DNA of 64,000 nt from Azolla caroliniana (lineage: Eukaryota > Plantae > Polypodiophyta): contig JBHGNT010000022.1 in assembly GCA_043228905.1 (NCBI GenBank), positions 2,976,001 to 3,040,000 of the forward strand, given 5' to 3'. Position numbers and translations under genes: made by a program. How positions within the stretch are numbered: position 1 is the first letter of the stretch; every line of letters begins with the position of its first letter. Under the pieces are notes generated by a model. It ran no database searches, was not told the DNA's origin, and worked only from the letters and a program-made list of their open reading frames with translations. Of the stretch, positions 2,571 through 37,800 are shown piece by piece.

Positions 2571-5500
2571 GACACGAAACGGACTCGTACCGACACACTA
2601 CCTCTTCGATCAGGAACCGGCATACCGCCGCGGTTGTCTTGTTCTGCAGTGCACAGCCTTCCACCTGGTTTGTTAAGTCTTCCCGCGCAAGCACCAAGTA
2701 TCGCATCTGTCCTACTCCCATCGGCATCGTCACCAAGTCCACCATCCACTTGAAATGGACCGCAGGCGGGTAAGTCGGGTGTAGCTCGTCCCGATGTCAG
2801 ACTACGGAGTGCATCTGACAACTTTCGCAAGTCATCACGAACCGATGCACGTCCTAGTACAGCCCCGGCCACCAGTACTTCTCCTTCAGCTTCTCGAACG
2901 TGGCCCACGTCCCGCGGTGCCCGTCCCAGGGACCCTCATGAAATGCCGCCAGTAGTTCCTCCTGTTCTTCTTTCTTTGCCACTACACGAAGCGGGATGTC
3001 GTTTTTCTTCTTTGGGTGCCTCCATATGCACTCATCCCGCAAGAAGAATCGGTACACCTTCTTCCGTACCCGGCTCACCCCTTCTCTCGTCCACACTGCG
3101 TCCGGCGTCATCGCCCGTAGGAACCTCCTGATTTGGAGCCACTCCCCGTCGTACCTTCTTTTGTCAAATTCGTTAAGCGACGGAGTGTCCCCTTTCCTCG
3201 TCGTTACGTTAGCTGACCCGAAGAAGTCCTTGCCGACTTCTTCGTCATCCGAAACCATGCCGTCTTCGTCGTTGAACCTCGCTCTCGAAAGCATGTCGGC
3301 CATGACGTTATCTTTTCTGGAGATGTGTCATATCTCCGGGTTCAGGGACTTAATGTACGCTATCCACCGGAGCATTGCTAGGTCCGGCGTCGCGCATCCG
3401 GATACCATGCCGAGTATCGGCTGGCAGTCAATCTCGATGATCACCTCCGTCCCGATCAGATAGTCCTTGTCGGCCTTAACTGCCGAAACGATACCCCAAA
3501 GCTCGCGCTTAACTTGGGCGTACCCTCGTTGCCACTCGCTCAATACCTTCGCCCCGAACCGGATCGGGAATCGTACGTCGTCCTTGTCCTCCTGACTTAT
3601 TACCCACCCGATCCCGGTTGGGCTCGTGTCCACTGTCACGCAAATGGGGACATCCTTACCGTAAACCGCTTTACGGAGAGTCGGCGCTACCGTAAGCGCC
3701 TCCTTTAGTCTCCGTAACGACTCCATGTGCTCCGTCCTCCACTCAAAGTTGCACCCCTTTTTCAATAGTCCGTAGAGGGGCTCCGCAACATGTGCGTAGT
3801 GCGGGATCCAGATGTGGTAGAACGTGCATGCTCCGTGACCGACCCGCAATCATCCATCATCGTGGAGATGGCCTCTACCTTTGCCGGAGACGGCTTCCTA
3901 CCGTAGGGCCCGCACAGGTGTCCGACCACCAAGATCTCCGACTGCCCGAACGCCAATTTTTCCCCAAAGAAGGTGAGTCGTGCGTTTTCGAGCCTCTGCA
4001 GCACCTTCTCGCAGTCGTTGATGTGGTTCACGACGAACCTCCGGCATCCGTCTGGCCCGACAGTCTCGTCCACATCATCCACCGGACACCCCTTTATCGG
4101 GATGTCATCCAAGAATGGCATGGTGATGTCCGGGATGCAGTCCCTCAGCACCTTGTTCATTGCGTTCACCATATGCACCACCGAATTTGTCCCGCCTTAT
4201 GGTAGGGTACACATCCGTACTAGGCCGAGAGGGGTTCGCATCGTCGTGATATCCCTGCTCTCCACGGCTAGCTGGAACTGGTCGTACCCCGAGTATAAGT
4301 CACCAACCGAATAGATCGACCTTCCAACGAAGGCCTTCGCGAACTCATCTATGGTCGGTCCGATTCCTGCATTACGGATGGTCACCCTGTTGACCAGTTG
4401 CAGGTCCTGAATGAAGCGCAGCATGCCGTTCTTCTTCGGCACCGTAAACCACCGGCTCGAATATGGGGCACTCGACGGTTCGAGACCCATCTCCACCTTT
4501 TGTTTCAGAAGCTCCATCAATTTCGGGATGTGAGCTCTCGGTACCGGGATCGGTTTGAGATTCCACGGTACATGCGGTACCGTGAAGATTACCATCGGTT
4601 CGACGATCGTCGGGTCCACGCACCCGATCTCCTCTGGCGAGAACGCGAAGGCTTTCCCATGCCTTCCGAGCATTCTCCGAAACCTGTCCTCCTCAGCCGG
4701 CAGTAGAAAGCCACCCCCACCAACCTTGAGCTCCCGTAGCGTTATGTCGGTGAACCGGTGCCCTATGCCAGCCGGATTCCGTAAACTTGGGTCCGACGCA
4801 ACCACTTTTATCTGCTCCTCGCTGCCCTCCGGCAAGGGTGCCGCGACTGGCTTCACCTTCCAGTCCACAGTCTTGTACTTTGTATCCACGCGGGCCGTCC
4901 GATCCGACCCGATCCTTTCCCCGAAGTCCGTGATGACTTCATACATTCCCATTGAACTAACCGGAACGGTCCGGTCTTCTCTAAGGTCTTCACCGATCAC
5001 CTTTTGCAATTCCCCCAAGGTGTCGTCAAAAGAGACCGCCTCCACGGCGTCGTTGATGTCTTCGTCGGGGGAGAGGACTCCGCATCCCCTGAGCCGCTCC
5101 TCCGCTCGCTTCCTCTCCCGGCCGTTGACGTCGGTTATAGTACAACCTCCGTTTTCAAAGAACCAAAACTTTCTACCTATTGTACATGTGTGGGGTTCTT
5201 CCGATATGTCCGGACTACCACGGCCCCACGCCTTGATAGCCCTCTCTAAAAATCCCCTCGGCTGCCGTTGCCGAGGGTCTCGCGATTCCTCTCATGATTT
5301 GGACGTACCGTCATGAATTGGACGGAATGCCAACCGTCCTGGCTCTTGATGCACGCGTACGCCGAACCGTTGTCCAGCACTTTCGTCTCCATGCGTGTTG
5401 CCGTAATGTATGGTTCGTCGAGAATCACCAGGTGCGAGGATGTTTCCTGCAGGAAGAAATGTTGATCTATCTCGACGTCACCGACCTTTACGCGTATATT

Positions 5501-6950
5501 TGGGCACGCACCATGCAGCTCCTCCGTAGCACGCGTCGCCGCGCGTATCTTCCACTCGTGCTTGGTGTTGATCGGCCATTTACCCTTCTTGTAGAAATCC
5601 ATGGACATCAGGTTGATTTCGGATCCATGGTCTAGCAAGGCCACCACCGGTTCCGGAACGTCGTTGATCCGCACAGGGGTTTCCGTAGTTGCCCTGGCCC
5701 AATGCGGCTTCGCGTAGTGGCTTTCCGCTAACTCTTCTTCTAGGGCCGCGTCTTCTAAGTGCGTAGTCCGCACCTCCACCGGCTTCTCCGGTTCTGGCTC
5801 CGTGGAGAGCCTCTTCCGCTTCACCAAGTCTACGATGGAGTCGTGGAACTCCCTCTTGGCGTTCCCAACACCTCTCGCAACGACAGCTCCACTTTACTGT
5901 CGAGGATCCGCTCTTCAAGGACCTTCCGTAGGTCCGTTGCTCTCTCGATTTCGGTGCTCAACCGAAACCCTGCCTGCTTCTTTCCGTTCGGCGCGCCTGG
6001 GTTGCCGGCACCAGTCGGTTTCGGTCCGAACTGGGTCTTGTACCTCGGGGGACCCACCCCCCCGGCCTTTCCTACCCGTTTTTCTTCCACCAGAACCTCG
6101 TAGTTCTGGCAAGCGGCTTCTACGAAGCCCGTTTTCTCTTCGACCGGATCGTCCCATCCGGTGACCTCCTGGACTCGCTGTTCCGCACGGTCCGCCTCTT
6201 CCTTCTTCAGCCGAACTCCGGAGAAGCCTTCTAGCACTAGCGGCCAGAATCCGGAGTCCTTCACCTTCCAGGACTCGTCACCCCCGACCCGAATTCCCGC
6301 CGACATTGAGTAGTTAACGGCTTCTACATGCCGTGTCGTGGCCTCTTCCATCAACCTCTTCATTCCACCGCGCCCCGTATTTAGTTCTAGGGCTCTCCGG
6401 GTCTCGCTCGCGTGCACCCACCCGTTCCAGAGGTACACCACGTTGGACCTGAGCGCGTCGGCGAAATCCGCGCAATCCTTCCGAATGTGACCGATCGCGT
6501 CACACCACATGCACCGCTGCCCAGCCGGTGGCCTCCGGTCCCGAGGTTGTTCGTCGCTGCCTCTTCGTGCTTGTGCGATCTACAGATCGCGCACCATCTG
6601 TGTCAGCTCCTCCAGAGCCGCTCCTCCGGATGGGCCTCTGACTACGTCATTCGATGCCGACCCCAACTCCAACCAAATTCGGGTCTCTTCCTTCCTACCG
6701 GCTGGCACCGATACCGGCTCCTCAAGCCTCCCCGCCGGAACCGGCCTTGACCCTGACGAGCTTCCGTCGCTCCAATCGCGCCATTTGTCGAAACAGCTAC
6801 AGACCCATTTTACCACGGCCCAATCTGTCGTGAGCCCTTCGTCCGTTTCCAATAGGGGACCCACCTTTTCCCTATCGAGCGCGTCTACCGACTTGACAAA
6901 CAGTAGTACTCAACTCGTTTCGAGCACGGTCCGGTTCAGCGTCGACAGCC
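2571..6950 (-). pseudogene. Degenerate gag-PR-pol of the older gypsy element
   Basis: Motifs ALLDHGSEIN, PFLDDIPIKG, VTVDTSPTGIG and GHRGTWATFEKL...WWPGLY are split across several frames. Confidence 0.9.
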
Positions 6951-6954
6951 GCGT

Positions 6955-7671
6955 TGTCGGGGTTACTACGCCCTTGCGTGTAGAAAGGAGGAGGGACCAC
7001 GGGGGTCTTGAACCGAAGAGCAAGAGAGAGAGGAGTAAGAGAGAGAGACCCGATTACACAGAACCGAAGATCCGATTGCGCAGAACCGACGATTGCACAG
7101 GGACACGGCCCAACAAACAGAGATCACAAATAAACGCCGACGCAGATGGACGCAACAACGAAAGATATGTACTTATGAATGCAAGAAAATAACAGACTAA
7201 AGTATTACAACCCACGGTGGGGCACGAAATAGATACTAACGAAAACGAACAGGGCGGCGAACAGATGCCGACCCCTGTATGTCGCGACGCACAGGAAGGG
7301 AAAACAGGTCGGAGGTGCTGCAGGACGCACTCGGGGCGTTCCACGGAACAGCGCAAGCCTCCTCGAAACCTGCACTGGTACGCGATGGAGCAGAAGACAG
7401 AGAAAGCAGGAGTGAGAGAGAGCTCCGAAATCGGTTCGGCAGCACTTCGTCCTCTCCGCGCGAGATACCCCACTTCTATTCTTCCTCTTCCCTTTTATAG
7501 CCCGTCAAGAGGCCGTTTGGCATTAACTGCATACCAACCGAATCTACCCACCTAGGATCCTCGTATGTACCTACTTCGTCCTTAGGTACTTCTTGGGGCG
7601 CGTGTGTGCGTAGAGCCGTTTCCCACGCCTTGTTCCTCCGATTCCTCTTGTGGGCGGTTTTCTTCACGACA
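6955..7671 (-). repeat. 3' LTR of the young gypsy element (717 bp)
   Basis: Direct repeat of 13402-14119. The ORF track gives identical translations inside both copies. Confidence 0.97.
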
Positions 7672-7743
7672 TCCGCCCCCACCTAACCGCGCATCCACCG
7701 GCATGCGCCAAAATAAGTTGGCACGGAGAAAACCGGCCCGCCT

Positions 7744-10700
7744 TTACTCTTCGCCTGCCGGCCCTTCCTCGGCCTCGGATCGGTCGTCGCTGCTGTTCAG
7801 GAGAATCGGGTCGGGTTCGTCGTCATGCCGCTTCTTGAAAGCTTTGATCCTCTTCCCGGCCACGGGTATCGCTATTCTCGTACCGTCGAGCTCCGCCAGA
7901 TGATACGTCCCGTTGTCGTTGGCGCTCTGTACCGTGTACGGCCCGAACCATCTCCGTGCGAACTTCCGCGTTGATCGGTGCTGGTTGTCGAGGCTGCTGT
8001 CGTAGACGAGCACCCAGTCACCTTGTTCGATCTTCTTCGGTCGGAGTCGGTGCGTTCGGTCGAACCTGGCCTTGTTCTTTATCCTCGCCACTCGGATCCT
8101 TTCTGCAGCCGTCTCCACGTCCTCCGGTCTCCGTTCGAGTTGTCGTATACGCGCTGCCAACAAGTCCTCCCGGCTCATCTCGTCCCTCCAGTCGACCGTC
8201 GCCCATGAGGAGATTGTTTGTTCCACCGGCATGATCGGCTTCTGGCCGAACATGAGCTCTGTCGGCATGTACCCGGTTACCGAACTGTGCGTAGTCCGGT
8301 CGGCCCACAAAGCATAAGGTAGAAGTCGCGGCCAGTTACCGACTTGGCCCCCGCATGCCCGAACCAGCGCTTTAACGATCGGCCCGTGTCCGCGCTCCAC
8401 CTTTCCATTCGCCTCCGGGTTGTACGCAGTGGTGAGCGAGAGTTTGACTCCCACCCGATCGAACAGCTCCGCGGCCTCCTCGGCGTCCAACTCCCCCCGG
8501 TCAGCCACGATCTTCCCGACGCACCCGTACCGGCATATCACGTCCTCGATCAGGAACCGACACACGGCCGCGGTCGTCTTGTTCTGAAGGGCTCGGCCTT
8601 CCACCTGGTTCGTCAGGTCTTCCCGCGCTAGGACCAGATACCGCATCTGTCCTACCCCCATCGGCATCGTCACTAGGTCTACCATCCATTTGAAGTGGAT
8701 AGTCGGAGGGTACGTAGGGCGAAGCCCATCCCGGTGTCGGACTATCGAGTGCATCTGACAACTCTCGCAAGTCGACACGAACCGATGCACGTCCCGGTAC
8801 AATCCCGGCCACCAGTACTTCCCCTTCAGCTTCTCAAATGTCGCCCACGTTCCACGGTGTCCAGCCCAAGGGCTGTCGTGGTAGGCCGTCAGCAGCTCCT
8901 CCTGTTCTTCCTTCATCGCCACCACCCGGAGCAGAGCGCCGTCCCTCTTCTTCGGGTGCTTCCATAGGTAGCCATCCCGGAGAAAGAATCGATATGCTTT
9001 CTTCCGGATCCGGTTGGCCTCGTCCTTCGTCCATGACGCATCAGGCGTCATTGTCTTCAAAAACCCGCCGATCTGCAGCCACTCCCCGTCGTACTTGCTC
9101 GCGTCGAACTCGTTAAGCGCCGGAGTGCTCATTCCGTCGGTCGTTATGTGTGCCGCCTCGAAGAAATCCACGCCGACTTCTTCGTCTTCCGAAACCATGC
9201 CGCCCTCGTCGTCGAACCTCGCCCTCGAAAGCATGTCGGCCATGGCGTTGTCTTTCCCGGAAATGTGTCGTATTTCCGGGTCCAGGGACTTGATGTACGC
9301 TATCCACCTGAGCATCGCCAGGTCCGGAGTCGCGCATCCGGAAACCATACCGAGAATCGGCAGGCAATCCGTCTCGATGATCACTTCTGTCCCTATCAGG
9401 TAGTCTTTGTCGGCCTTAACCGCCGAAACAATACCCCAGAGTTCGCGTTTAACCTGGGCGTATCCTCGCTGCCGTTCACTGAGGACTTTCGCGCCGAATC
9501 GGATCGGAAACCGATTGCCGTCCTCGTCTTCCTGGTTCACGACCCATCCGATCCCGGTCGGACTGGTATCCACCGTTATGAATACCGGGGTACCGTTCCC
9601 GTATACCGCCTTCCGGAGTGCCGGTGCCGCTGCAAGGGCCTCTTTCAGCTTCCGGACCGATTCCGCGTGCTCGTCTAGCCATTCGAACCTTCGCCCCTTT
9701 TTCAGCAACCCATACAGTGGCTCCGCGACGTGTGCGTAATGCGGGATCCATATGTGGTAGAACGCGCATGCCCCCAGGAATCTCCGTACTTCCGTGACCG
9801 AGCTGCAGTCGGGCTTCATCGCGGAGATGGCTTCTACCTTTGCCGGAGACGGTTTCCGGCCATACGGTCCGCACAGGTGTCCGACCACCATGATTTCTGA
9901 CTGCCCGAAGGCCGACTTCTCCCCGGAGAAGGTGAGTCTCGCATCCTCTAGCCTTCGCAGCACCTTCTCGCAGTCGTCGATGTGCGTCGCCACGAATCGC
10001 CGGCATCCGTCCGGCCCGATCGTCTCGTCCTTCTCTTCTACCGGGCATCCCTTGATCGGGATGTCGTCCAGAAACGGCATGGTGATGTCCGGGATACAGT
10101 CCCTCAGAACCTTGTTCATCGCATTCACCATGTGGGCCACCGAGTTGGTCCCTCCTTGCGGCAGTGTACACATCCGAACTAGGCCGAGGGGAGTTCGCAT
10201 CGTCGTAATGTCTCTGCTCTCCACGGCTAGCTGGAACTGGTCGTACCCTGAGTATAGATCCCCGACCGAGTAAATTGACCTTCCGGCGAAGGCCTCCGCG
10301 AACTCGTCTATGGTCGGTCCGATCCCTGCGTTCCGAATGGTCACTCGATTGACCGGCTGCAGGTCCTGGATGAAGCGCAACGAACCGTTTTTCTTCGGTA
10401 CGGTAAACCATCGATTCGAATATGGGGCGCTCGACGGCTCGAGAATTCCCATATCAACTTTCTGCCTCAGCAGCTCCATCAACTTCGGGATGTGAGCTCT
10501 CGGAACCGGGATTGGCTTGAGGTTCCATGGTACATGCGGTACCGTGAATATCACCATCGGCTCCACGATCGTCGGGTCAACGCACCCGATTTCCTCCGGC
10601 GAGAATGCGAAGGCTTTCCCGTGCCTTCCGAGCATTCTCCGAAACCGGTCTTCCTCCGCCGGCAGTAGGAACCCGCCCCCACCGATTTTGAGCTCTCGGA

Positions 10701-11241
10701 GCGTCTCGTCGGTGAAGGTGTGCCCTATGCAGGCCGGATCTCGTAGACTAGGGTCCGATGCAACCCCTTTGATTCTCGACGCGCTGTCCTCCGGTAAGGG
10801 TGCCGCGACTGGCCTTACCTTCCGGTCCACAGTCTTGTACTTGGTGCTTACGCGGGCCGTCCGAACTGACTCGAGCCCTCGACCGAAGTCCGCGATGACT
10901 TCGTACATCTCCTCGGAACACACCGGTATCGTCCGGTCTTCGTTAAGGCCTTCTTCGACTACCTTTCCCAGCATTCCCAAGGTGTCGTCGAATGAGACCG
11001 CCTCCACGGCTCCGTTGATTTCCTCGTCAGGGCCGAGAACTCCGCACGCTCGAAGTCTCCCCTCCGCCTTTGTCTTCTCTCGGCCGCCGATGCCGACTAT
11101 CGTACACGCTCCGCTGTCGGAGAACAAAAATCCCCTACCTATGGTACAAGGTTCCTTCGGTTTTATCGTACAGGTGTGGGGGTTTCCCGGGGTGTCCGGA
11201 CTGTCGCGGCCCCACGCCTTGGCAGCCCTCTCTAAAAATCC
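7744..11241 (-). CDS. Pol polyprotein (RT - RNase H - integrase), predicted to be entered by -1 frameshift from gag-PR
   Basis: 1127-aa ORF; the frame stays open upstream to the slippery site at 11241. RT motifs DLYSGYDQF, LPQGGTNS, PFLDD. RNase H TVDTS...KREL...ETD. Integrase H..H..CESC, VDLV, VADRG, NGKVER and a GPY module. No chromodomain seen. Confidence 0.93.
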   Translation of the reverse strand, partial: GFLERAAKAWGRDSPDTPGNPHTCTIKPKEPCTIGRGFLFSDSGACTIVGIGGREKTKAEGRLRACGVLGPDEEINGAVEAVSFDDTLGMLGKVVEEGLNEDRTIPVCSEEMYEVIADFGRGLESVRTARVSTKYKTVDRKVRPVAAPLPEDSASRIKGVASDPSLRDPACIGHTFTDETLRELKIGGGGFLLPAEEDRFRRMLGRHGKAFAFSPEEIGCVDPTIVEPMVIFTVPHVPWNLKPIPVPRAHIPKLMELLRQKVDMGILEPSSAPYSNRWFTVPKKNGSLRFIQDLQPVNRVTIRNAGIGPTIDEFAEAFAGRSIYSVGDLYSGYDQFQLAVESRDITTMRTPLGLVRMCTLPQGGTNSVAHMVNAMNKVLRDCIPDITMPFLDDIPIKGCPVEEKDETIGPDGCRRFVATHIDDCEKVLRRLEDARLTFSGEKSAFGQSEIMVVGHLCGPYGRKPSPAKVEAISAMKPDCSSVTEVRRFLGACAFYHIWIPHYAHVAEPLYGLLKKGRRFEWLDEHAESVRKLKEALAAAPALRKAVYGNGTPVFITVDTSPTGIGWVVNQEDEDGNRFPIRFGAKVLSERQRGYAQVKRELWGIVSAVKADKDYLIGTEVIIETDCLPILGMVSGCATPDLAMLRWIAYIKSLDPEIRHISGKDNAMADMLSRARFDDEGGMVSEDEEVGVDFFEAAHITTDGMSTPALNEFDASKYDGEWLQIGGFLKTMTPDASWTKDEANRIRKKAYRFFLRDGYLWKHPKKRDGALLRVVAMKEEQEELLTAYHDSPWAGHRGTWATFEKLKGKYWWPGLYRDVHRFVSTCESCQMHSIVRHRDGLRPTYPPTIHFKWMVDLVTMPMGVGQMRYLVLAREDLTNQVEGRALQNKTTAAVCRFLIEDVICRYGCVGKIVADRGELDAEEAAELFDRVGVKLSLTTAYNPEANGKVERGHGPIVKALVRACGGQVGNWPRLLPYALWADRTTHSSVTGYMPTELMFGQKPIMPVEQTISSWATVDWRDEMSREDLLAARIRQLERRPEDVETAAERIRVARIKNKARFDRTHRLRPKKIEQGDWVLVYDSSLDNQHRSTRKFARRWFGPYTVQSANDNGTYHLAELDGTRIAIPVAGKRIKAFKKRHDDEPDPILLNSSDDRSEAEEGPAGEE
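11172..11241 (-). promoter_or_regulatory. Putative -1 programmed ribosomal frameshift signal (slippery GGATTTT + stem-loop/pseudoknot)
   Basis: G GAT TTT TAG at the gag stop, with pol in the -1 frame. A 6-nt spacer is followed by stem GGGCTG...CAGTCC, whose loop GTGGG is complementary to a downstream CCCAC. The same layout occurs at 5188-5255. Confidence 0.75.
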
Positions 11242-13358
11242 TCTCGGTTATCGGAACCGAGGGAGTCGCGGTTACGCTCGTGGTTCGGCCTAACCGTCAA
11301 AAACTGGACCGAATGGCGCCCGTCCTGGCTCTTGACCCGCGCATAGGCCGAACCGTTGTCCAGCACCTTGGTCTCCATTCGAGCCGCCGTGATGTACGGC
11401 TCTCCCAGTATGACGGGGTGCGATGACGACTCCTGCACGAAGAAGTGCTGGTCTATCTCGACATCGCCGATCTTGACCCGTACATTCGGGCAGGCCCCGT
11501 GAAGTTCCTCGGTGGCGCGCGTCGCCGCCCTTATCTTCCACCCGTGCTTGGTGTTGATCGGCCATTTGCCCTTCTTATAGAAGTCCATGGACATCAGGTT
11601 GATTTCCGATCCGTGGTCCACCAAAGCTACTACCGGTTCCTGGACATCGCCGATCTTTACCGGGGTTTCCGTGGTCGCTCGGGCCCAGTGTGGCCGCGAA
11701 TAGTGGCTCTCCGCCCACTCGTCTTCCAGCGCCATGTCGTCCAGGTGCGCCGTCCGCACCTCTACCGGTCTTTCCGGTTCCTCCTCCGTCGACAGCCTCT
11801 TCCGCTTGACCAAGTCCACGATGGAGTCGTGGAACTCTTTCTTCGCGATTCCGAGCACCTCCCGTAGCGACAGCTCCACCTTGCTGTCGAGGATCCGTTC
11901 CTCCAGGACCTTTCGTAAGTCCGTGGTTCTTTCTATCTCCGTCCCCAGACGGTACCCGCCCTTCTGGGGTTTATCTTGCGTACCGGCCCCGCCGGCTTCG
12001 TCCCGTCGTGGCCCGGACCGGGTCTCGTATCGTTGTGAGGGCCCGGTCGTCCCGGGTTTCCCCACCCGCTTCTCTTCTACCAGAGCCTCGTAGTTCCGGC
12101 AAGCGGCTTCCACGAAGCCCGTCTTCTCCTCGACCGGGTCGCTCCACCCGGTCATCTCCCGTACCCGTTTCTCCGCACGGTCCGATTCCTCCCTCTTCAT
12201 CCTCGTATCGGCAAGGCCTTCCAGCACCGTCGGCCAGAATCCGGCTTTGCTTCCTCTTCGGGCCTCGTTGCCCCCGACTCGAATACCGGCCGACGCCGAG
12301 TAGTGGACGGTTTCCGCATGTCGGGCCGCCGCCTCTTCCATCAACCTCTTCATTCCGCCTCGCCCGTCGTTTCGGTTTAGGGGCCTTCTCGTGTCGTTGG
12401 CGTGAACCCGGCCTTCCCATAGGTACACCACCCGGTTCCTCAGCGCCTCTGCGAAATCGCCGCAGTCTTTTCGGATGTGGCCGACCCCGTCGCACCACAT
12501 GCACCTGTTCCCTGCCGCCGGCCGTCGGTCACGAGCAGGTCCTCCGCCTTCTCTGCGGGCTTGTGCGATTTGGAGGTCTTTTATCGCCCTCGTCAGTTCC
12601 TCCAACGCAGCTCCTCCAGTCGAGCCTCTGATCACGTCGGTCGTAGCTGAACCGGATTCCAGCCACTCCCGAGTCTCTTCCCTTCGCACCGGCTGCGCCG
12701 GCTCGAGTTTCCTCGCCGCGACTGAGCCCGACCCGGTTGCTCTGTCATCCTCCCATTCTCGCCGTTTGTCGAAACGGCCGCAGGCTCTCTTGACCGCCGC
12801 CCAGTCGGCTGTCAGCCCGTCTTCGGTTTCTAGCAGGGCGCCCACGTGACTCCGATCCCTCTCGTCAACCGATTTGACGAACAGCAGGACCCGGCTTGTA
12901 TCCAGGACCATCCTGTCAAGCGCCGAAAGGCGCGCGAAGTTCTCCTCGAACTCCCGGAGGAGTGCCGACGCATTTCTTCCTTTCCCGGGAGACTCCACCC
13001 ACTCCATGAAGCTTCGCTTCGAAAGCCGGAGCGCGTCGTCCAGTCCGTATTTTTCCAGGAGCCGACCTTCGAACTCCTCCCAGGTACGGCTCTCCGCCCG
13101 CACCTCGAGCACCTCCGCATGGATGCTCGGCATCGCCACTCGGGGAAAACCGGCAAGACGCCTGTCTTCCGGAATGTCCCGCATTAACATTTCCGCACCG
13201 TAGGACGCCAGATACTTCGTGGCATCCTTCCCATCGAACCGGCCGATCGTGCCGACGACCGCCTCAATAGCTCTGTCGAGGGCACCGGTGCCCTCGCGCG
13301 CGTTTACAATCCGATCCACGGCCGAAGCCATGGCCTCTGCGAGATCCGACCCCCTCAT
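11232..13358 (-). CDS. Gag-protease polyprotein
   Basis: Open frame (ORF-track start GTG 13385; first ATG 13358). CMWCDGVGHIRKDC zinc knuckle. Aspartic protease motifs ALVDHGSEIN and VILGEPY. Ends in TAG at 11232-11234. Confidence 0.92.
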   Translation of the reverse strand: MRGSDLAEAMASAVDRIVNAREGTGALDRAIEAVVGTIGRFDGKDATKYLASYGAEMLMRDIPEDRRLAGFPRVAMPSIHAEVLEVRAESRTWEEFEGRLLEKYGLDDALRLSKRSFMEWVESPGKGRNASALLREFEENFARLSALDRMVLDTSRVLLFVKSVDERDRSHVGALLETEDGLTADWAAVKRACGRFDKRREWEDDRATGSGSVAARKLEPAQPVRREETREWLESGSATTDVIRGSTGGAALEELTRAIKDLQIAQARREGGGPARDRRPAAGNRCMWCDGVGHIRKDCGDFAEALRNRVVYLWEGRVHANDTRRPLNRNDGRGGMKRLMEEAAARHAETVHYSASAGIRVGGNEARRGSKAGFWPTVLEGLADTRMKREESDRAEKRVREMTGWSDPVEEKTGFVEAACRNYEALVEEKRVGKPGTTGPSQRYETRSGPRRDEAGGAGTQDKPQKGGYRLGTEIERTTDLRKVLEERILDSKVELSLREVLGIAKKEFHDSIVDLVKRKRLSTEEEPERPVEVRTAHLDDMALEDEWAESHYSRPHWARATTETPVKIGDVQEPVVALVDHGSEINLMSMDFYKKGKWPINTKHGWKIRAATRATEELHGACPNVRVKIGDVEIDQHFFVQESSSHPVILGEPYITAARMETKVLDNGSAYARVKSQDGRHSVQFLTVRPNHERNRDSLGSDNREDF

Positions 13359-13380
13359 CTTCTGCTCTTCTGCCGCCTCT

Positions 13381-13398
13381 TTCACGTCGGGTTCACCA
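13381..13398 (-). promoter_or_regulatory. Primer binding site complementary to the tRNA-Trp 3' end
   Basis: Minus strand TGGTGAACCCGACGTGAA, 3 nt from the LTR. Matches the ...TTCACGTCGGGTTCACCA end of plant cytosolic tRNA-Trp. The same PBS occurs at 14568-14586. Confidence 0.85.
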
Positions 13399-13401
13399 AG
13401 A

Positions 13402-14119
13402 TGTCGGGGTTACTACGCCCTTGCGTGTAGAAAGGAGGAGGGACCACAGGGGGTCTTGAACCGAAGAGCAAGAGAGAGAGGAGTAAGAGAGAGAGACCCG
13501 ATTACACAGAACCGAAGATCCGATTGCGCAGAACCGACGATTGCACAGGGACACGGCCCAACAAACAGAGATCACAAATAAACGCCGACGCAGATGGACG
13601 CAACAACGAAAGATATGTACTTATGAATGCAAGAAAATAACAGACTAAAGTATTACAACCCACGGTGGGGCACGAAATAGATACTAACGAAAACGAACAG
13701 GGCGGCGAACAGATGCCGACCCCTGTATGTCGCGACGCACAGGAAGGGAAAACAGGTCGGAGGTGCTGCAGGACGCACTCGGGGCGTTCCACGGAACAGC
13801 GCAAGCCTCCTCGAAACCTGCACTGGTACGCGATGGAGCAGAAGACAGAGAAAGCAGGAGTGAGAGAGAGCTCCGAAATCGGTTCGGCAGCACTTCGTCC
13901 TCTCCGCGCGAGATACCCCACTTCTATTCTTCCTCTTCCCTTTTATAGCCCGTCAAGAGGCCGTTTGGCATTAACTGCATACCAACCGAATCTACCCACC
14001 TAGGATCCTCGTATGTACCTACTTCGTCCTTAGGTACTTCTTGGGGCGCGTGTGTGCGTAGAGCCGTTTCCCACGCCTTGTTCCTCCGATTCCTCTTGTG
14101 GGCGGTTTTCTTCACGACA
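13402..14119 (-). repeat. 5' LTR of the young gypsy element (718 bp)
   Basis: Direct repeat of 6955-7671 with one extra A (ggaccacAggggg). The PBS is adjacent. Confidence 0.97.
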
Positions 14120-14590
14120 GCGTGAACCGTTTTTCGAACTCCTGGAGGAGCGTCGATGTGTTCCTCCCTTTTCCAAAGCTTTCCACCCACGCCATGAAGT
14201 CCCGCCTTGACAGTTGAAGCGAGTCGTCAAACCCGTACTTCTCGAGGAGCTGCAGCTCGAACTCCTCCCAAGTCTGGCATCCGGCCAACACCTCGAGCAC
14301 CTCCGCATGGATGCTCGGCGTCACCACCCGAGGGAATCCAGACAGCCGCCTGTCCACCGAGATATCCCTCATGATCATTTCGGCCCGGTAAGCCTCCAAA
14401 TAACTTGTGGCGTCTTTCCCTCTGAACCGGCCTATAGTGCCGACGATTGATTCAATGGCTATGTCGAGGGTACCCTTCCCCTCACAAGCGCTTACCAGCC
14501 GGTCGACAGCTACCGCCATTGCCTCTGCTAGCTCCGATCCCCTCATCTTTTGACTCGTTTGCCGCCTATTCACGTCGGGTTCACCAAAGA

Positions 14591-14648
14591 TGTCACGAAG
14601 TTTGTGTTCGCGTGTAGGAAGAGGCGGGACCATGAGGGTCTTGGACCA

Positions 14649-14685
<37 letters not shown>

Positions 14686-15244
14686 TAAGAGCAAGAAAAC
14701 AGGAATCCGATTACTATAATCAATAGCTTACAACTCGAACAGTTACAACTGGCAACCCGGTAATGGACTTGACACGGGGTCCTACTCACACACACAGACG
14801 ACAACCACGCGACTCCAGGAAACAAAAAGGGGAGAGCCTCTGCTTGAAGCACACGGGTTGGGCTGTCAACGAAGCAGAGGCAGCGAACTCCCGACACCCA
14901 CAAAGACCGACGACCGGAGGAGGAGAAGAGAGAGCTCGGCACTCGGTTCTGCAGCAGCACTTCGTCCTCGCCAACGCGCCATCCCTTTCCTTCCCTCTCT
15001 CCCTCCTTAAATAGTTCGTAAAAAGGGGGGGTGCCCCTTTCTCCCTAGTCAAATTGCTTTATTCCCTGTCCCTTTCGACAGAGATATGCACAATCCCATA
15101 ATAAATGTATACTACCTAGTATCTACATCAACCGACCTAATTATGAATCATGTACAAAATATCAATTCATGCGTCCATCCGTGTAAGAGCCGGTTCATGC
15201 GCCCTTTTCTCCAATTCCGCCTATGGCCGGTTTTCTTCACGACA
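14591..15244 (-). repeat. 5' LTR of the older gypsy element (654 bp)
   Basis: Starts TGTC right after the PBS, ends ggttttcttcacgaca like the young LTR, and contains a (GA)n tract. Confidence 0.85.
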
Positions 15245-18837: not shown

Positions 18838-20772
18838 TGCTAATTTCGAGTTGAGCTCAAGGGATGATGCTTATGCTTAGCAATCCCAATGTTTGCTAAA
18901 AATAGATCAATTTCAACTCTTTACAACATGTATGTTACATTATGACTCTTTGCTTGAGGAGATAGCCAAAGCACTTCCCACCAACAAATTCACCAATGAA
19001 ATTGAACAAGGTCTTATTGATCTGTCTAAAACAAACAACAAGGAAGCCCTTGATCGCTTCATATTTGAGGGGGGGCTCCTTTACCAAGAGCATCTCTTAT
19101 ATGTTCCAGAGGGCCTATGTCGAACTCGAGTTCTTCAAAAGTGTCACAACAACCCATTGGCTAGCCATTTTGGAGTTACAAAGACCCTAGAATTAATCTC
19201 GTGAGGATATTGGTGGCCTCAACCGTGGAATTTTGTCAAGGAATTCATCAAGACATTACTTGGGCTTGATCCAAAGTCACCCACCACAGGCCATATGGTT
19301 TACTCCAACCACTTCCCATTCCCAACCAGCCTTGGGCATCTATTTCCATGGATTTCATCATTGACTTGCCTCAAGTCCATAGATATGACGTAGTGCTCAT
19401 CAGGGTGAATCAGTTTACAAAGATGGCTCATTTTGCTCCTTGTGCAAATACTATTTCACGTCAAGAAATGACATATCTATTTTTTAACGAATGTGGTGTG
19501 GTTTCACAGGGTGTCAGACGATGTCACCTCGGATCGTGAACCCTAAATTGTCTCTTGTTTTTTGTGACAGCTCCTTCATACACTTGCACAATAGTGAATT
19601 TGTACTCATCCTATCATCCTCAAACCGATGGGCAAACTAAGTAGGTGAATCAAATTCTAGAGCAATACATCATGTGCTCATTTAGCTACCAACAAGACGA
19701 TTAGATCGACCTCCTACCGTTGGCGGAGTTCACATATAATAATACGCTACATGGTTCAACTAGGGTCACCCTATTTTTCGCCAACGATGGTTTCCATTTT
19801 CGCTTCAACATCTCCATCCCTGCTAACTCTATCAACCATTCATCAAAACCCCTCCCTCGAGCTCATCCTTGTTGTGGACCATTACAAAGCGCAAGCTCAT
19901 TGTCATCGCTCAACCACACCCCCATTTGTAGTCGGTGATCAAGTCTAGCTCTTACATCGCCATGTCGACATTATGCAACCTTGTGCAAAGTTGGACTACA
20001 AAAAGTTGGGGCCTTTTCGCATCAACCCAGTCACTTTCTGGCTAGAACTTCCTCCGCATTTCCAGATTCATAATGTCTTCCATGCCTCTCTCCTTTACCC
20101 TCATCATCCATCCACCATTCCTAGAACATACTCTCCACCTCCACCTCCAGTCGGTCTTTCCACAGGTGAGGAGTATGAGGTTGACAAGATTTTGGACCCT
20201 TGTTGGCATGGACGACAACTTCAATACATTGTCCTATGGAAAGGGTGCCCCATTTCAAAGGCAACTTGGGAACCACCCCGACAGTTGGTGAATGCACCAG
20301 ATGTTGTTCACGCATTTCGTCACCAATATCCACAAAAACAGGGGTGACATCTTAGGAGACGGCATTAACTAAAGGATAATGTCATGGAAACGACATTTGT
20401 CATGTCAAGATTCAAACGCTTGACCTCTTGTATTGTAATCAAGTGTTGTGTTTTAACCAACACATCCGGTACATGGTCATGTTATGTACATGTTAGTAGA
20501 TTATCTATTGCATGTTCTAGGAGTTTTTAGAAGCTTCAAGAAAGCTCTAGAAGTTGGAACATTCCAGAAGCTTCTGCACGGAATTCAAAAACTACATGCA
20601 GAGCCCACAAACATGTATAAATACAGGGGTTCACCTTGATCCCAGTCAAGGTGAACAACGCCAGTTACGGAATCCTATATTCAACTTTGTCTATCTCTTG
20701 TTTCTCACTTCATCTCTCAGTATCTTACCTTTTTCCTTGCTTTGTTTTGCTCTGCTCTATCTGTCCATGACA
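18838..20772 (+). mobile_element. Degenerate chromovirus (Ty3/gypsy, Tcn1-like) 3' part: integrase, chromodomain, 3' LTR
   Basis: HNNPLASHFG...[37 protein letters not shown] and chromodomain EEYEVDKIL...YIVLWKG...TWEP. LTR 20380-20772 has perfect TGTCATGGA/TCCATGACA termini. Confidence 0.88.
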
Positions 20773-22774: not shown

Positions 22775-24786
22775 TTAAAAGCTGTGCCATTCTGACAATG
22801 GGATGGTCTCCAACTCCATGGTGCTCATGCTCATATCAGTATATCTATCACCTTTAGCACATTGGCTATGGAATATGGCTTCTAAATCTTCGATATCTTT
22901 CTTGGAGAGTTTAACATTGAAACAGCCCACATTCTCCTCCAAGTTCTTTTTCCTGGTTGTGCCTGGAATGGGAGCAACATCATCCCCTTGATGCTGTACC
23001 CATGCCAATGCAAGCTGGCCTGGTGTACACCCAACTCTAGAAGAAATCTCATTCAACTTCGCAAACAGCTCCACGTTATGGTCCAGATTGTCAGAAGCAA
23101 ATCTTGGTTGTGATGTCTAAATAACAATAAGAAGATTAAGGTTTAGCTAAATAATGCAAAAGAATTCCATTATAAGTTTTTTCTTAATCTTGGTTGTGAT
23201 GTCTAAACAACAATAAGAAGATTAAGGTTTAGCTAAATGCAGAAGGCTTCCATTATAAGTTTTTTCTTGAAATGGGAAAACATCCTCACTAACCTTTCGC
23301 ATATCATTGTCAGTTAAGTTTTCTAGAATCTTCTGTCCAGCTGAGAAAAACCCTCGTCCTAGTGGACTAAAAGGCACAATACCAATACCCAGCTCCCTGT
23401 AATCACATGATTCTCAAAACCCTAAAAGAAAAGAAAAAACTCTAAAACACAAATCAAAACACTAGAAGAATCCAACAATCATTACCAAAACACAAACAAA
23501 TCAGGGAAGGAACAAAACACTAAAAGTAAAAAAACCCTAAAATACAAATCAAAACACTAGAAGAATCCAACAATCATTAGCAAAACACAAACAAATCAGG
23601 GAAGGAGCAAAAACCTGCAAGTCGGAATGATTTCTCGTTCTGAATCACGAGTCCACAATGACCATTCCAGTTGAACAGCCGTAATTGGGTGTATTGCATG
23701 AGCTCTCCGGATAGTAGAAGCTGAAGCCTCAGAGAGGCCCAAGTACTTTATCTTCCCTTCTTCAACGAGCTTTTTCATCTCTCCAATCTAGGCATAGAAA
23801 CAATGGCTTCCCACAAAAAATGAGCTATTACACCACACAATGGCTACTGCTACTCTAGATCAAACATTTCCTTCTTTCCAAAGGAACTCTTCTCAATTTA
23901 CCGTAACCTCGATCGGCACTCTAGAATCGATGCGATGAACATAGTATAAATCGATATAATCCACATCCAATCTCCGTAAGCTTGCTTCACAGCATGATCG
24001 AACATAGCTCGGGTCTCCTCGGAAAACACGTTTTCCATCCTCATAACAAATGCCGAATTTGGTGGCTAGCTGAACTTTATGCCGAATGCCTTTCAAAGCC
24101 TGCCATGTACCAAATACAACAAATCAACGACTATGGAAAATCTATGGGAAAAACGCCAGTGGTGAAAACCTCCTAGAAATTCTATATTCAAGAAAATTCA
24201 ATCCCCCCCTAAAGTCAGTTCTATGGGAGAAGTGTGCCTTATGATTATGAAACTCAGCTGCAAAACATGACTAACCTTATAATGGTGGCTTTAGTGTAGA
24301 TTTTCTGGTCCAGAGGAATGAGTCAATAAGGTTCTTAGCACACATAAGAAGAATGGCAAAACAATACAAAAAACAAAACAGAGCAATGATTTAAAGATGG
24401 AAAGAAAACAGAGTTTGTTCAGGTTTAGCACACATAAGATAAATGAGAAAGAAATACAGACTAATGATTTAAAGAAAAAATAATAATGGTTAGGGTTTTA
24501 GCACACATAAGCAGAACGAAGGAATGAATGAATGAATGAATGAATGAAGTTAGATTTGATAGATCACCTTTCCAAGAAGGATTTCATTGGTGTGAGGGCC
24601 ATAGACATCAGAAGTGTCGAGGAAAGTGACGTTTAGCTCATTCACTGCGTAGCGAATGAGATCGATCATCTCCTCCTCAGGCTTGGGGGGTCCATAGGAA
24701 GAAGACATGCCCATGCATCCCAACCCTTGAGCAGAGACCTCGAAACCCTGCGATCCAAGCTTGATGCGAGGTATCTCCATCACCAT
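22775..24786 (-). CDS. Aldo-keto reductase (plant AKR, auxin-induced / perakine-reductase-like), 5 exons, about 344 aa
   Basis: GT-AG exons 24786-24568, 24099-23902, 23787-23615, 23396-23294 and 23116-22775 join in frame. Motifs [49 protein letters not shown]. Confidence 0.95.
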
Positions 24787-24884
24787 AGATCTCTCAGGCT
24801 CTGAGCTCTGCCTCTGTCTCTGCCTCTGGTTCTGTCTGAAACAGGGGAAGAATCATATGGCTCTGCTATTCCATTAGAGCTGGG

Positions 24885-24885
24885 T

Positions 24886-24924
<39 letters not shown>

Positions 24925-25079
24925 TCTACCCATGAAAACTCCCATTATGTAGGATTTTTTTATTTTTTATTTTTTATTTTTTATTATTTATTTATTTATT
25001 TATTTATCGATGAAAACTCCCATTATGTAGGATTTATTTATTTATTTATTTATCTATGAAAACTCCCCTTATGTAGGAT

Positions 25080-25142
<63 letters not shown>

Positions 25143-25236
25143 TCTATGAAAACTCCCCTTATGTAGGATGGATTTATTTATTTATCTATCTATCTATTTA
25201 TTTCTTTATTTATTTATGAAAACTCCCATTATGTAG
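24885..25236. repeat. Compound (TTTA)n microsatellite with five copies of ATGAAAACTCCC(A/C)TTATGTAG
   Basis: Motif copies at about 24932, 25010, 25056, 25146 and 25216, separated by TTTA tracts. Confidence 0.9.
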
Positions 25237-26990
25237 TTATAAAGGAAGGATTAGTTAAAAAACCATGTGATGATGATAAGAGCAGTAGTGAGGGAGGTAT
25301 TGGCCAAGATAAAGACCATCAATTGGTGATGAATGTGCCTCAGCTCTCTCTCTCGTTATTTCTTTCGGGGGAGTTTCAGTACAATCTTTTTTATGTAACA
25401 GTCGGCAATTGGTTCGGCTACAAAGAACCGAAGAGGCGAGGCCGGTACGAATTCGACCTATGGGGTAGCATCGGTGAAGAAGACCCATGAGAACGCCTGC
25501 CCACGCATTCCTAAGAGTTCGAGCATCGTTTCGCCCAACTCTCGATGAGGGATCGAAGATTGGTGGGGGGCTGAAATAAGGTCCTAATGTTCGTAAGGTC
25601 GATCGATCGAAAGGAAAAGGACGAAGATTCGGCCAAAATGGAAAGAGTATGTCGATGACACGACGAAAGGGAGGCACGAATCTTATCAACAATGGTGGAG
25701 CCCACTATCGATGGTCGAATGAGAACGAGACAGGTCGACCCATTGCCACCTAAGGACATGAGCTTGGCGCAAAAAGGTACTACAGTACTCAACATGGAAG
25801 CCTTCGTGAGGGAGGCTTATGAAAGCTTAAGGGTATGAGTCAAAGTTGAAGTGAAGTCTACAACGAAGCTAAAACCTACGCAAAGTGTGGACGAGGAGGA
25901 AGTCACCTCCCAACAAATGTGGATGAATGATGTGGTCGATATGAATGCCCAAATAGGTTACAACAACAGTACTACGGGAGAAGGTCTGGAACAAGTCTCC
26001 TTCTTGGCATGCGACGAAACGACGGCTAAGGATAAGGCCTATAACACAACTATGGGAAGCACCACTCCGAGAGTCGATGAGGGTTTCGAAACATGTGTTG
26101 TGCTCAAAACATTGAGAGATAACAGGACAAGCATAATCGAAGCTTACATAATCGAGGAGGACAACGAGTGTGAGGCCAAAGGTCGACAAGCCTTTGCGCG
26201 ACAAGGAGCCTTCGGTCTTTTCCGCCTTTCTGACTCCCTAATCCGAGACCCCCATGATCTCGCTCGAGTAGCACACGCACACACATTATCCCAACAATGC
26301 AATGCTTTTGTATTTGATGATAGGCATGGAGTGAAAGCATATCTACGTAAGTTGAAGGGAGTACTAATGTGGCAATTTTCTTTATTGGAGCAAGTGGAAA
26401 TTCTTTCCTCGGTGGAGTGTTCCTCTTGCCTATTGGCAATTCAACATGTTCCACTACCCATGTAGTGTAGTGTAGTGTAGCTAGTGGGTGACCATACTCT
26501 ATTGTGACACCCATTGCAAGTACTAATTTTCACACACATTTATTGATATAATTGTGTGTTTTCGCCAAAGAGAGAGAGAGAGAGAGATTGTTTTTCACGC
26601 TCTACTATTTTATAGTCAACAACAAAAAGTTACAAGAAGTTGTATTTGGATATATTATGTATGTGGTCATAACCACATCCACACACACACACTATTATTC
26701 AACCTCCCCCGTAATGGGCATACACAATGTAATCAAACTCAACTCGTCAATGCATGAATTAGCTTCAAAACCCATTTGAGTGCACAAATCTCGAAATATT
26801 GTTCATAACATCATATATGTTGTTGAGTGTTGCAATCTTGTTGATGACAATTCTCTTCTAGGTGACATATTCCCTAACAACTTATAAGGTGATCTCTATA
26901 TGTTTTGATGTCAAATGATTGATTGGATTCTTTGCCCAAAAATATTCCACCATGGTTGTCACTACATAAGGTTAGATCCGAGTTTGATTT

Positions 26991-34841: not shown

Positions 34842-37800
34842 CAAGAGATTTGAACAATAATAGAATACTCAAGAAGATGTATATTACAAAGGAGATTAAT
34901 CGACCTGATTACAAGTACGAGGAGAGTGCTTTATATAGTCACTCTCCCTCTTCATTAACTACCGAAGCTCATGGGTCATGGGGAATGTGAAAACTCATAT
35001 TCTATGACACATAGCTAATGTGTAGATAAGAGTGGTGACTTTTGACCTTTGAGTGCACACTCTCAAGGGTGTGTTCACACACTAGACTAGGTTGAGCTTG
35101 ATTCTCAACACCCCCTAAGAGAAACAAGAGACTGAGGAGTAGGAACAAGAGCAGTGGCTTGTCAAAGGAGGGGGAGCATCTGTTGGCGGTAGAGCCCCCC
35201 AAGTGGCACTATCCATGTTGGCAGGTTTCGAATGTACATCAATGGACGATTCTAGTGGGAGGCGAGGGTTACGCCCATAGAGTGCTTGAAAAGGGACGAC
35301 GTTGAGGACATCCTCCTGGAACTGGGGGCCCTGATCAGATAATAGTTGGACGGGGCTAGTAATGGAAAACGAGCTAACAATTGGCGGATAGAGATCAATC
35401 CCTCCGGTGGGTTGAGGGCCACCTGGACTTGGCTGAGGTGGGGGACATGAGGGCTATCGTGTCGGAGGGGGATCAGGGGAAGATCGATTGGCGGAGAAAG
35501 ATCAATCCCTCCTGTGGATTGAGGGCCATCTGAACTTGGTTGAGGTGGGGGACAGGAGGGCTAGAGGTGGATAGAGATCAATTGCTCTTGTGGACTAAGG
35601 GCCACTTGGACTTGGCTGAGGTGGGGGACAGGAGGGCTATCATGTAAGAGGGGGATCGGGGAAACTCGTGGGACAAGAAGTTAGTGGGCAACCTAAGGTG
35701 AGGGGGAAGAGGTGGATGCTTGGACGTGGGGGATTGGTACCCTGCTTCTCCACCAATATGTGAAATGCACATAAGAGATCAAAACCAACCTAGTTAGCTT
35801 CTTACTTCTTGCTCAATTTATAGTTGATACAAAAGTACCCATTTGGGTTGGCTTAGCTAAAAAAGGTGTGCTAAAAGGGTGGCACAAAGGAACACATACA
35901 CACCACAATATAGTTAGGTTTAAACTTTTTATTAAATGGCTCGGTTTGGTTTCAACTTTTGATTTAAATAGTTTGGTTCAATTTATAGTTGATACAAAGG
36001 TACCTACTTGGGTTGGCTTAGCTAAAAAGGGTGTGCTAAAAGGGTGGCACAAAGGAACACATGCACACCACAATATAGTTAGGTTTAAACTTTTTATTAA
36101 ATGGCTTGGTCTGGTTTCAACTTTTCTCTAAACGGTTTTGGTTTAAATAGTTTCGTTTACTTAAATAGTTTTCTTAAATGGTTTGGTTTAATGGCTTCAA
36201 AGTTCATAAACGGTTTAGTTTGGTTTTTGTTTTATATAAATGGTTTGGTTCAGTTCGGTTTGGTTTCAAGGCAAAGAAACCAAACCAAACCGAAACCAAA
36301 CAGGGCCTATTGCTAGTGCTTAGCTGCAAATATCTACATTTTTCTTATGAGCATGGAATGTTTTTGTGTTCTTAGCCAAATACTCGAGATAAAACCAGGG
36401 AACATTGGAGGTTTTACTAATTTGTTTCTATTTATATACTGTCTCCAAGCTGCGACAATTTTTCAGATGTAATCCCGTGTTCAGTCTCATGGGACACTTT
36501 GGCCTCTCAAGCAATATATTTTCCACCACCATCAAATTCCTTCTATATTGCAACTGTAGGGTTACTTTGGCTTGACTGAAACTTGCCCTCACCTCTTTTT
36601 TCTGAATTTGTGGAATCATCATATTTGTCGGGAGATCATAGATTTTACTCAGATGATGATTTATGCAGCCTGATTTTGTGCTGGTCTCAACATGGGTCCA
36701 TGATTCCACATGGGACACTTTGGCCTCTCAAGCAATATATTTTCCACCACCATCAAATTCCTTCTAGATTGCAACTGTAGGGTTACTTTGGCTTGACTGA
36801 AACTTGCCCTCACCTCTTTTTTTCTGAATTTGTGGAATCATCATATTTGTTGGGAGATCATAGATTTTACTCAGATGATGATTTATGCGGCCTGATTTTG
36901 TGCTGGTCTCAACATGGGTCCATGATTCCACATGTAGTAGATGAAGGCAGCACGAGGATTAGGGTTTAGGTCAAAAAACAGAGAGGGAGAGAGTCTGAGT
37001 GAGAGAGAGAGATGCACGCTGTCTTGGGTACAAAAGAGTGTACCTCTTTTTTTGGTTTTTAGATATTATGTATATACAACTCAAAAGTGTGCTACGAGTG
37101 CGTTCACACTCGTGTACTAATAAAAGGCACGATGGCCCTTTATTCCCAACAACCTCCCACCTAAAGGCAATGTGCCGTGAGAAGAAAAAAACAAAAAAAA
37201 AGTCAGCTAAGTCCAAGTATGTACAAAGCTGAACTACATACATACATCTATCCAACTCCCATCATCTATCGGCAATGAGCAAATCGCTTAGCTGGAAGAC
37301 CCTTCATGAGAAGATCTGCAGGATTATTATTTGTATGTACTTTGACAAGCTCAATGTTCTTGCTGTCAAGTACATCTCTGATGAAGTGATACTTCACCTC
37401 TATGTGCTTCGTCTTTGCATGAAAGAGGGATTTCGAGCTAGCATGATAGCACTCTGGCTGTCACAATGAAGAATAGGTAACTCTGTAATGCCAAGATCTC
37501 TCACTAGATATGAAAGCCATAAAGCCTCTTTTCATGCCTCAGTGGCAGCAACATACTCTGCCTTTGTAGTAGACAATGCAACACACTTCTGTAGTCTGGA
37601 GATCCAAGAGACCGCTCCTCCTGTGAAAGTAAACACATACCCAGAAGTAGACTTCCTGCAGTCTGCGTGACCTGCATAGTCCGCATCCGTAAAACCAACG
37701 ACAGATGCCTTTTGCTTTCCAAAGCAAATACACAAGTCCTTTGTGCTTTTGAGGTATCTCATAATACCTTTCACTGCTTCCCAATGCTTTTTGCCGGGAT

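Follow-up and report, generated by a model that had tools for sequence, protein, structure and literature searches.

An intact Ty3/gypsy element in the genome of the fern Azolla caroliniana carries its Gag-protease (Gag-PR) and Pol reading frames in a -1 relation, and the two frames meet at a slippery heptamer that is followed, after a 6-nt spacer, by a covarying stem. We assign a probability of roughly 0.65 to the reading that an entire Phygy-like lineage, spanning mosses, liverworts and ferns, would obtain its RT and integrase through a -1 shift after the protease, at the G GAU UUU heptamer known from plant viruses and with the help of a compact local pseudoknot. The original prediction for this DNA was a conserved -1 cassette joining Gag-PR to Pol, and this is still the best reading of the junction, with frame, heptamer, 6-nt spacer and covarying stem all kept across families. 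Judged from these sequence patterns, a programmed -1 frameshift between protease and RT, leading from Gag-PR to Pol, is very probable.

In the mechanism that we propose, the Asp and Phe tRNAs would slip in tandem from GAU UUU to GGA UUU, prompted by ribosomes pausing at an H-type pseudoknot. A minority of ribosomes would shift back by one base and make a Gag-PR-Pol fusion of ~1,870 residues with the junction Glu-Asp-Phe/Leu-Glu-Arg, and the remaining ribosomes would stop at the adjacent codon. The expected outcome is an excess of Gag and protease over RT and integrase.

A young element nested in an older relative

The window, by which we mean the whole 64,000-nucleotide stretch analysed here, contains a young, intact Ty3/gypsy element of 7,165 bp on the minus strand (6955-14119). 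Its parts, and those of an older relative that surrounds it, are as follows.

13402-14119, minus strand: 5' LTR of the young element (TG...CA), with the ACGC target duplication at 14123-14120
6955-7671, minus strand: 3' LTR of the young element, with the ACGC target duplication at 6954-6951
13383-13398, minus strand: primer-binding site TGGTGAACCCGACGTG of the young element; the same motif follows the LTR in ~14 related loci
7672-7684, minus strand: purine-rich tract adjoining the 3' LTR
11232-13409, minus strand: Gag-protease ORF of 725 codons, with its first ATG at 13358, DUF4100 and a DHG protease-like motif near the C-terminus
7744-11247, minus strand: Pol ORF of 1167 codons in the -1 frame, with linker, RT, RNase H and integrase
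2575-6954, minus strand: body of the older related element, 77% identical, with frame breaks in gag and pol and its 3' end lost
14120-15244, minus strand: 5' LTR, primer-binding site and gag start of the older element, with an ACGT (NCGN) flank

The two LTRs of the young element agree at 717 of 717 aligned bases, with one gap that reflects a single indel. The domain order PR-RT-RH-IN, together with the LTRs and the target duplication, identifies a Ty3/gypsy LTR retrotransposon. The best solved-structure match to Pol is Ty3 Gag-Pol (E 5e-54), and look-alikes of Gag-PR in the ESM Atlas carry Asp_protease_2. ORFs spanning 13409-7744 fill the interior (13401-7672), which holds no extra domain or ORF, and Pfam found no chromodomain in Pol. 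The primer motif after the LTR is conserved and starts with TGG; the site may be of the tRNA-Trp type. A tRNA gene matching this motif was sought among 120 viral matches, which yielded one tRNA-Met and no tRNA-Trp, a chance-level result.

The young element (6955-14119) is nested in gag of an older member of the same lineage (2575-15244), and the 5' flanks of both fit an NCGN target preference. Elsewhere in the window we observed a Ty1/copia element (36942-41860) whose terminal repeats are 99% identical and whose ORF is split by in-frame stops, and a decayed chromovirus fragment (18881-20347) with an integrase zinc finger, SH3 and chromodomain. Exons of a plant aldo-keto reductase gene lie on the minus strand at 22775-24852, with a TATT-rich tandem array just upstream (24877-25287), and open frames on the plus strand at 56605-58184 resemble host-gene exons and have no Pfam match. 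The reductase exons and the chromovirus fragment mark the host as a plant, and the relatives of the young element suggest a seed-free one.

Gag-PR and Pol overlap in a -1 relation across relatives

In the young copy Gag-PR ends G GAU UUU UAG, and the RT-RH-IN ORF lies in the -1 frame with an overlap of only 13 nt. The sequences and coordinates originally given for the gag-PR/pol joint proved correct, as did the -1 relation between the two minus-strand ORFs (13409-11232 and 11247-7744). Because the overlap is this short, and shorter still in one relative (10 nt in L038), only the heptamer site is left for a shift.

We retrieved relatives by protease protein alignment, blind to the RNA signal. 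The scan extended over 30 of the 64 parts of a metagenome contig set, and of the 90 loci that it confirmed we kept the best 80; their median nucleotide identity in PR is 65%. These loci sample many element families, and the hosts are probably few because 75 of the 80 come from one series of assemblies. In two loci (L052 and L056) the stretch of PR from which the tree was built is frame-damaged, and their long branches, like the minimum identity, are artefacts. Scans of viral contigs with two protein alignments found no relatives.

Fifty loci include the end of PR as well as a match to pol, and in 48 of them Pol is in the -1 frame, as it is in both window copies. The two exceptions, L051 (+1) and L063 (0), are damaged copies. 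A sequencing error or chance indel at the junction was considered and is ruled out by the recurrence of the same offset in 48 of 50 loci. From the heptamer on, the linker between slip site and RT aligns as protein in the pol frame, and Gag-PR proteins end in DF or GF in 10 of 10 full-length first matches (37-93% identity).

The first ~135 codons of Pol, which run from the slip site to RT, constitute a linker that is conserved as protein and has no Pfam match. A distant relative outside the main clades (P0225, 57% RT identity) has PR and RT in one frame and still has DF at about the matching place; it represents either a side branch with a single ORF or an indel-bearing copy.

The frame relation also bears on whether Pol might be made separately, by internal initiation, by reinitiation or from a subgenomic RNA, with the stem as part of the signal. 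In favor of this, the gag stop adjoins the structure, and the available text of PMC2194720 describes a Candida Tca2 junction with a predicted pseudoknot that gave de novo initiation in yeast reporters. Pol had originally been described as having no AUG for more than 100 codons; this holds for the old copy (101 codons) but not for the young one, whose first in-frame AUG comes 89 codons on. Across relatives, the position of that AUG ranges from 3 to 111 codons past the slip site, yet the linker is protein-conserved all the way from the heptamer. A cluster of RNA starts was not seen (at low depth), and Pol made without Gag would lack the usual packaging route. We therefore consider separate synthesis of Pol highly improbable.

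A conserved heptamer at a fixed distance from a stem

The -1 frameshift reading places the following elements at the junction.

11235-11241, minus strand: slippery heptamer G GAU UUU (X XXY YYZ type, G_GA), GGATTTT, read 11241-11235
11229-11234, minus strand: 6-nt spacer, opening with the gag-PR stop TAG (11234-11232)
11221-11228, minus strand: stem 1, 5' arm GGGCUGCC
11198-11205, minus strand: stem 1, 3' arm GACAGUCC, with one C·A mismatch in the young copy
11210-11215, minus strand: loop segment GUGGGG, predicted 5' arm of stem 2
11176-11181, minus strand: CCCCAC, predicted 3' arm of stem 2 in an H-type pseudoknot
5190-5255, minus strand: the same cassette in the older, broken copy, with the heptamer at 5255-5249, stem 1 at 5242-5235/5219-5212 and stem 2 at 5229-5224/5195-5190

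A covariance model built from 31 cassettes matched 55 of the 80 loci, 29 of these being training members. In the remaining 25 loci the PR match or contig ends before the junction (16), ends at the heptamer (2) or has the junction deleted or rearranged (7). Within the 64-kb window the model matched only the young and old cassettes, both training members. It also matched a divergent subgroup (described below) that lies outside the training set, with E values of 0.01-0.06. Rfam, searched over 4900-14700 with E up to 5, gave no match.

The heptamer lies inside the overlap, in the upstream frame, and has the X XXY YYZ form. Among the 55 cassettes it reads GGATTTT in 42, GGATTTC in 4, AGATTTC in 3, GGTTTTT and GGGTTTT in 2 each, and GGATTTG and GGATATT in 1 each; GGNTTTY (GGNUUUY in RNA) thus accounts for 50, and in 48 the very next codon is a stop. 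The first base of the heptamer occupies a gag wobble position and is not read in the shifted product, and it is G in 34 of 34 cassettes over 11 gag amino acids, against a background of 30%. The spacer length is gap-free in an alignment of 31 sequences (A4, defined below). In 13 long pol ORFs, four-fold third-position identity reaches 0.78 over 15 codons counted from the site, and 0.72 over codons 5-19, which lie beyond the gag overlap, compared with 0.346±0.053 (maximum 0.559) in 586 other pol windows. The heptamer is conserved beyond protein need.

In three loci (L031-L033) two tandem in-frame GGATTTC heptamers stand 12 nt apart near the gag stop, and of the two, only the second lies 6 nt from the stem.

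The run of five consecutive T that heptamer and stop form in most copies would also suit a polymerase that slips on the U run and adds one base, mending the frame in the RNA. Intact GGATTTC families (L031-L033), however, have only three T, RNA reads show no inserted letter at the site (3% threshold, low depth) and a stem 6 nt downstream suits the geometry of a ribosome. We regard polymerase slippage as exceedingly improbable, and return to the -1 frameshift reading and its RNA structure.

Stem 1 covaries across families

After the 6-nt spacer the young copy reads GGGCTGCCAAGGCGTGGGGCCGCGACAGTCC (minus strand), and the older copy repeats this layout at 5255-5190 (GGGCTATC...GGTAGTCC). Alignment A4 comprises 31 distinct sequences from the better-preserved loci, with identical junctions and most of the decayed copies excluded, and is essentially gap-free through the stem. 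Stem 1 pairs columns 14-21 with columns 37-44, and 238 of 248 cells are paired (96%), with two-sided changes at 5 of the 8 pairs, in 22 cells. None of 500 shuffles had a paired fraction as high, and slid controls gave 21-45%. As a control with relatedness preserved, the PR alignment offered 11,165 helices of 8 bp, and not one was more than 79% paired. Stem 1 was the best covarying among 88,975 pol helices, and the single pol helix that is more paired is invariant and without covariation. Covariation across family copies had been set in advance as a check, and stem 1 shows it; together with the heptamer counts given above, the pairing also bears out the expectation that heptamer and stem would be conserved in other copies. 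The junction accordingly has a conserved, covarying 3' structure at 6 nt.

The G-C to A-U swap that had been noted between the two window copies is real and belongs to a wider pattern, in which pair 19/39 is A-U in 22 sequences, G-U in 4, G-C in 3, U-A in 1 and unpaired in 1 (n = 31). It is the sister group of the young clade that has the G-U state, an observation suggestive of a wobble intermediate between G-C and A-U. In the young copy the neighbor of the swapped pair is the C·A mismatch, which places its stem 1 among the weaker ones. Hairpin z is about -1 for the young copy versus -4.6 to -4.9 for the old copy, and the young 82-nt cassette folded alone has a minimum-energy fold without stem 1 (z +0.28). 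The local hairpin z lies below -2 in 25 of 34 sequences.

An inner GGC/GCC helix of 3 bp, which the original prediction included in the stem, did not hold up. It is 62% paired over the 31 sequences, with covariation no better than in slid controls, and we rejected it as a conserved element. The predicted structure is therefore revised: conservation extends to the lower stem of 8 bp and to a helix between the loop and a downstream segment, but leaves out the inner helix.

In pol alignment columns 886-921 and 1772-1830 (RT, RNase H) we saw two complementary 8-bp pairs that are nearly invariant. They are 98% and 93% paired over 13 sequences, show no covariation and may be due to conserved protein motifs or mark a second RNA element.

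A predicted local pseudoknot

The loop of stem 1 had been said to have a pairing partner in a downstream CCCCAC, and this segment is indeed present at 11181-11176. In A4 a partner for loop columns 28-32 is found at columns 56-63, at a fixed distance, in 30 of 31 sequences. The H-type pseudoknot that would result has a stem 1 of 8-9 bp, a loop of ~5-6 nt, a stem 2 of 4-6 bp that pairs GGGG with CCCC, a junction of 2-4 nt separating the stems and a last loop of ~14-16 nt.

The -1 shift could be real and yet be stimulated by stem 1 alone, or by a loop that pairs with a distant segment as in dianthoviruses and umbraviruses. RNAalifold, a method that cannot predict pseudoknots, predicts only stem 1, and several members allow this stem to be prolonged into the loop. 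A duplex-energy test of stem 2 was weak, as 10 of 31 sequences beat 95% of background windows taken within 1.5 kb and the median rank was 0.14. We fitted the register of stem 2 to each sequence individually, and the core of this stem consists mainly of invariant G-C pairs, with few two-sided changes. Against stem 1 alone or a distant partner stands the constant distance of the local partner, found in 30 of 31 sequences compared with control bins (n = 115) that average 0.13 and never exceed 0.61. The run of C persists although the codons and amino acids differ (P, S-P, T-L, S-L). A divergent subgroup (L037, L040 and L043) has new sequences in both stems and 45 of 45 cells paired; its stem 2 swaps to GCGGG(A)/(U)CUCGC or CCCGC and is fully paired. 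No covariation is seen within this subgroup, as it has only three sequences. Two further loci (L038 and L042) have one stem 2 pair changed from G-C to A-U.

Taken together, a stimulator consisting of stem 1 alone, or one that relies on a distant partner, is possible but unlikely, and the local H-type pseudoknot is the probable structure in our model. Our trust in it is moderate, given the weak energy-rank test and the fitted register. Confidence is higher for the -1 shift and stem 1, which we regard as highly probable, than for stem 2, which is likely.

RNA coverage of the junction

The RNA data comprised three raw poly(A) runs (~12% of each) and two contig sets. Depth over the element is ~10-20, and the signal is low-level, weakly stranded and derived from diverged copies. 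No splice joining gag to pol appears at the junction, which is covered without a joint in all five sets (three of them raw) at this depth.

These data address the possibility that Pol is joined to Gag-PR by splicing, as in Ogre, in which case the stem would be a splicing or packaging signal. Gene models of Riccia sorocarpa fuse PR to RT, and at a depth of ~10-20 a minor isoform could escape; the RNA coverage may be compatible with a minor splice form or with DNA carry-over. The layout nevertheless departs from an Ogre-type spliced gag-pol, in that the ORFs overlap with no spacer between them and the first 480 aligned columns of pol contain no AG acceptor that reaches 90% conservation. The junctions in the Riccia models vary widely (among the 29 PR-containing matches listed), as happens when a gene finder bridges a frame break, and splicing leaves the invariant heptamer G and the fixed 6-nt spacer unexplained. 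Splicing is thus a very unlikely route to Pol here, and a -1 frameshift remains our preferred one.

Riccia sorocarpa gene models such as P0141-P0148, P0161, P0180 and P0189 link protease to RT at many points, and these joins are probably false introns that bridge the frameshift. All 21 long fused relatives found are Riccia sorocarpa gene models, which is weak evidence for the absence of such fusions elsewhere. The only recurring joint in the RNA is a 105-nt in-frame skip inside integrase (8670-8776 of the window), seen in three RNA runs and one contig set. It lacks canonical splice ends and is probably a deleted genomic copy.

Host range and assignment to Phygy

The named relatives of Pol are Riccia sorocarpa gene models, and those of PR include four Physcomitrium patens proteins (60-71% identity) and proteins of Adiantum nelumboides and Riccia fluitans. 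In three of the four Physcomitrium patens proteins, and in the fern protein, DF is followed by five final residues (GEVPL, for instance). This ending matches that of the L037/L040/L043 subgroup, whose five codons form the 5' arm of stem 1. The Riccia fluitans protein ends in DF. From these protein ends alone we infer that the DNA signal would be present in moss, liverwort and fern hosts.

ESM Atlas clusters also contain basidiomycete proteins of 830-860 aa with DUF4100 and protease that are apparently stand-alone. Given their similar length, the split layout may extend to fungi.

The element probably belongs to Phygy. It was placed by its features, as our own tree contains no reference lineages and the Physcomitrium kin carry no lineage label. 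Features in common with Phygy are a 4-bp NCGN duplication (ACGC on both sides of the young element and ACGT at the 5' flank of the older copy), no chromodomain found, an interior filled by the coding region and Physcomitrium patens among the closest named proteins in PR. The REXdb entry for Phygy lists a 4-bp NCGN duplication, a tRNA-Trp primer in 81%, with which the primer motif here may agree, an organisation of 'ND' (not determined) and a length range of 7,656-9,968 (PMC6317226); at 7,165 bp, the young element falls under that range.

Comparison with known systems

A 2003 survey, as summarized in the available part of PMC5009743, placed pol in the -1 frame in 28 of 51 animal elements and named only two plant types with separate frames, both +1. 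The same source describes -1 signals of retroviruses, insect Ty3/gypsy elements and PEG10 that resemble the present cassette in having a heptamer, a short spacer and a 3' stem or pseudoknot that sets the Gag:Pol ratio. In contrast to those, the shift here comes after the protease, so that protease would be made at the Gag level. The second (pro-pol) shift of MMTV and HTLV has a similar position, but Gag and PR are in one frame here.

Red clover necrotic mosaic virus and pea enation mosaic virus (PEMV) RNA 2 use the same heptamer class, G_GAU_UUU, on plant ribosomes (PMC5009743). The original attribution of GGAUUUU-class heptamers to dianthoviruses and umbraviruses agrees with this source, which lists the G_GA variant for some members of both groups and reports that a nearby stop codon matters in PEMV. 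The bulged stem-loop of those viruses pairs kilobases away (PMC5009743), whereas the predicted partner here lies ~16 nt past stem 1. We saw no sign of common descent with the dianthovirus or umbravirus elements, and no Rfam match. Pseudoknots of Visna-Maedi and LDV have an interstem element (PMC5009743), and the likeness to the predicted structure lies in 2-4 unpaired nt between the stems and a long first loop; this resemblance is one of topology only, to a structure that is itself predicted here.

Among plant elements, Ogre (with GAG-PROT spliced to RT-RH-INT) and Retand (with a stop between them) also have two ORFs split at the same PR/RT boundary (PMC6317226). They differ in that they have a spacer or intron, or an in-frame stop, whereas the frames overlap here in a -1 relation. 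Tcn1, Selgy and SIRE are listed with an overlap after GAG, that is, before the protease and with the frame not stated, whereas here it follows PR. The REXdb table, as far as the available text of PMC6317226 gives it, has no lineage with an overlap after PROT.

We did not find this signal described in the full-text literature, including the available parts of PMC2864245, PMC7466625, PMC12885004, PMC6911290 and PMC11963269; subscription papers, Repbase reports or REXdb per-element files could mention it. The original claim of novelty for plant LTR retrotransposons therefore survives this literature search, with the qualification that an overlapping gag/pol was already on record for Tcn1, Selgy and SIRE. 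A -1 frameshift is in itself a textbook mechanism; its setting here is the PR/RT boundary of a plant lineage for which our literature search found no description.

Implications

If the proposed reading is true, a plant retrotransposon lineage would for the first time be credited with a -1 frameshift cassette, and the 'ND' entry for Phygy in REXdb would be filled. The recoding field would gain a frameshift signal that is endogenous to plants and comes in dozens of natural variants. The layout predicts an unusual stoichiometry, with protease at the level of Gag and with RT and integrase rationed. It would also explain why intact elements of this kind look broken, as in liverwort gene models whose introns seem to span the junction inconsistently, and active copies would be undercounted by any intactness filter that discards frameshifted elements.
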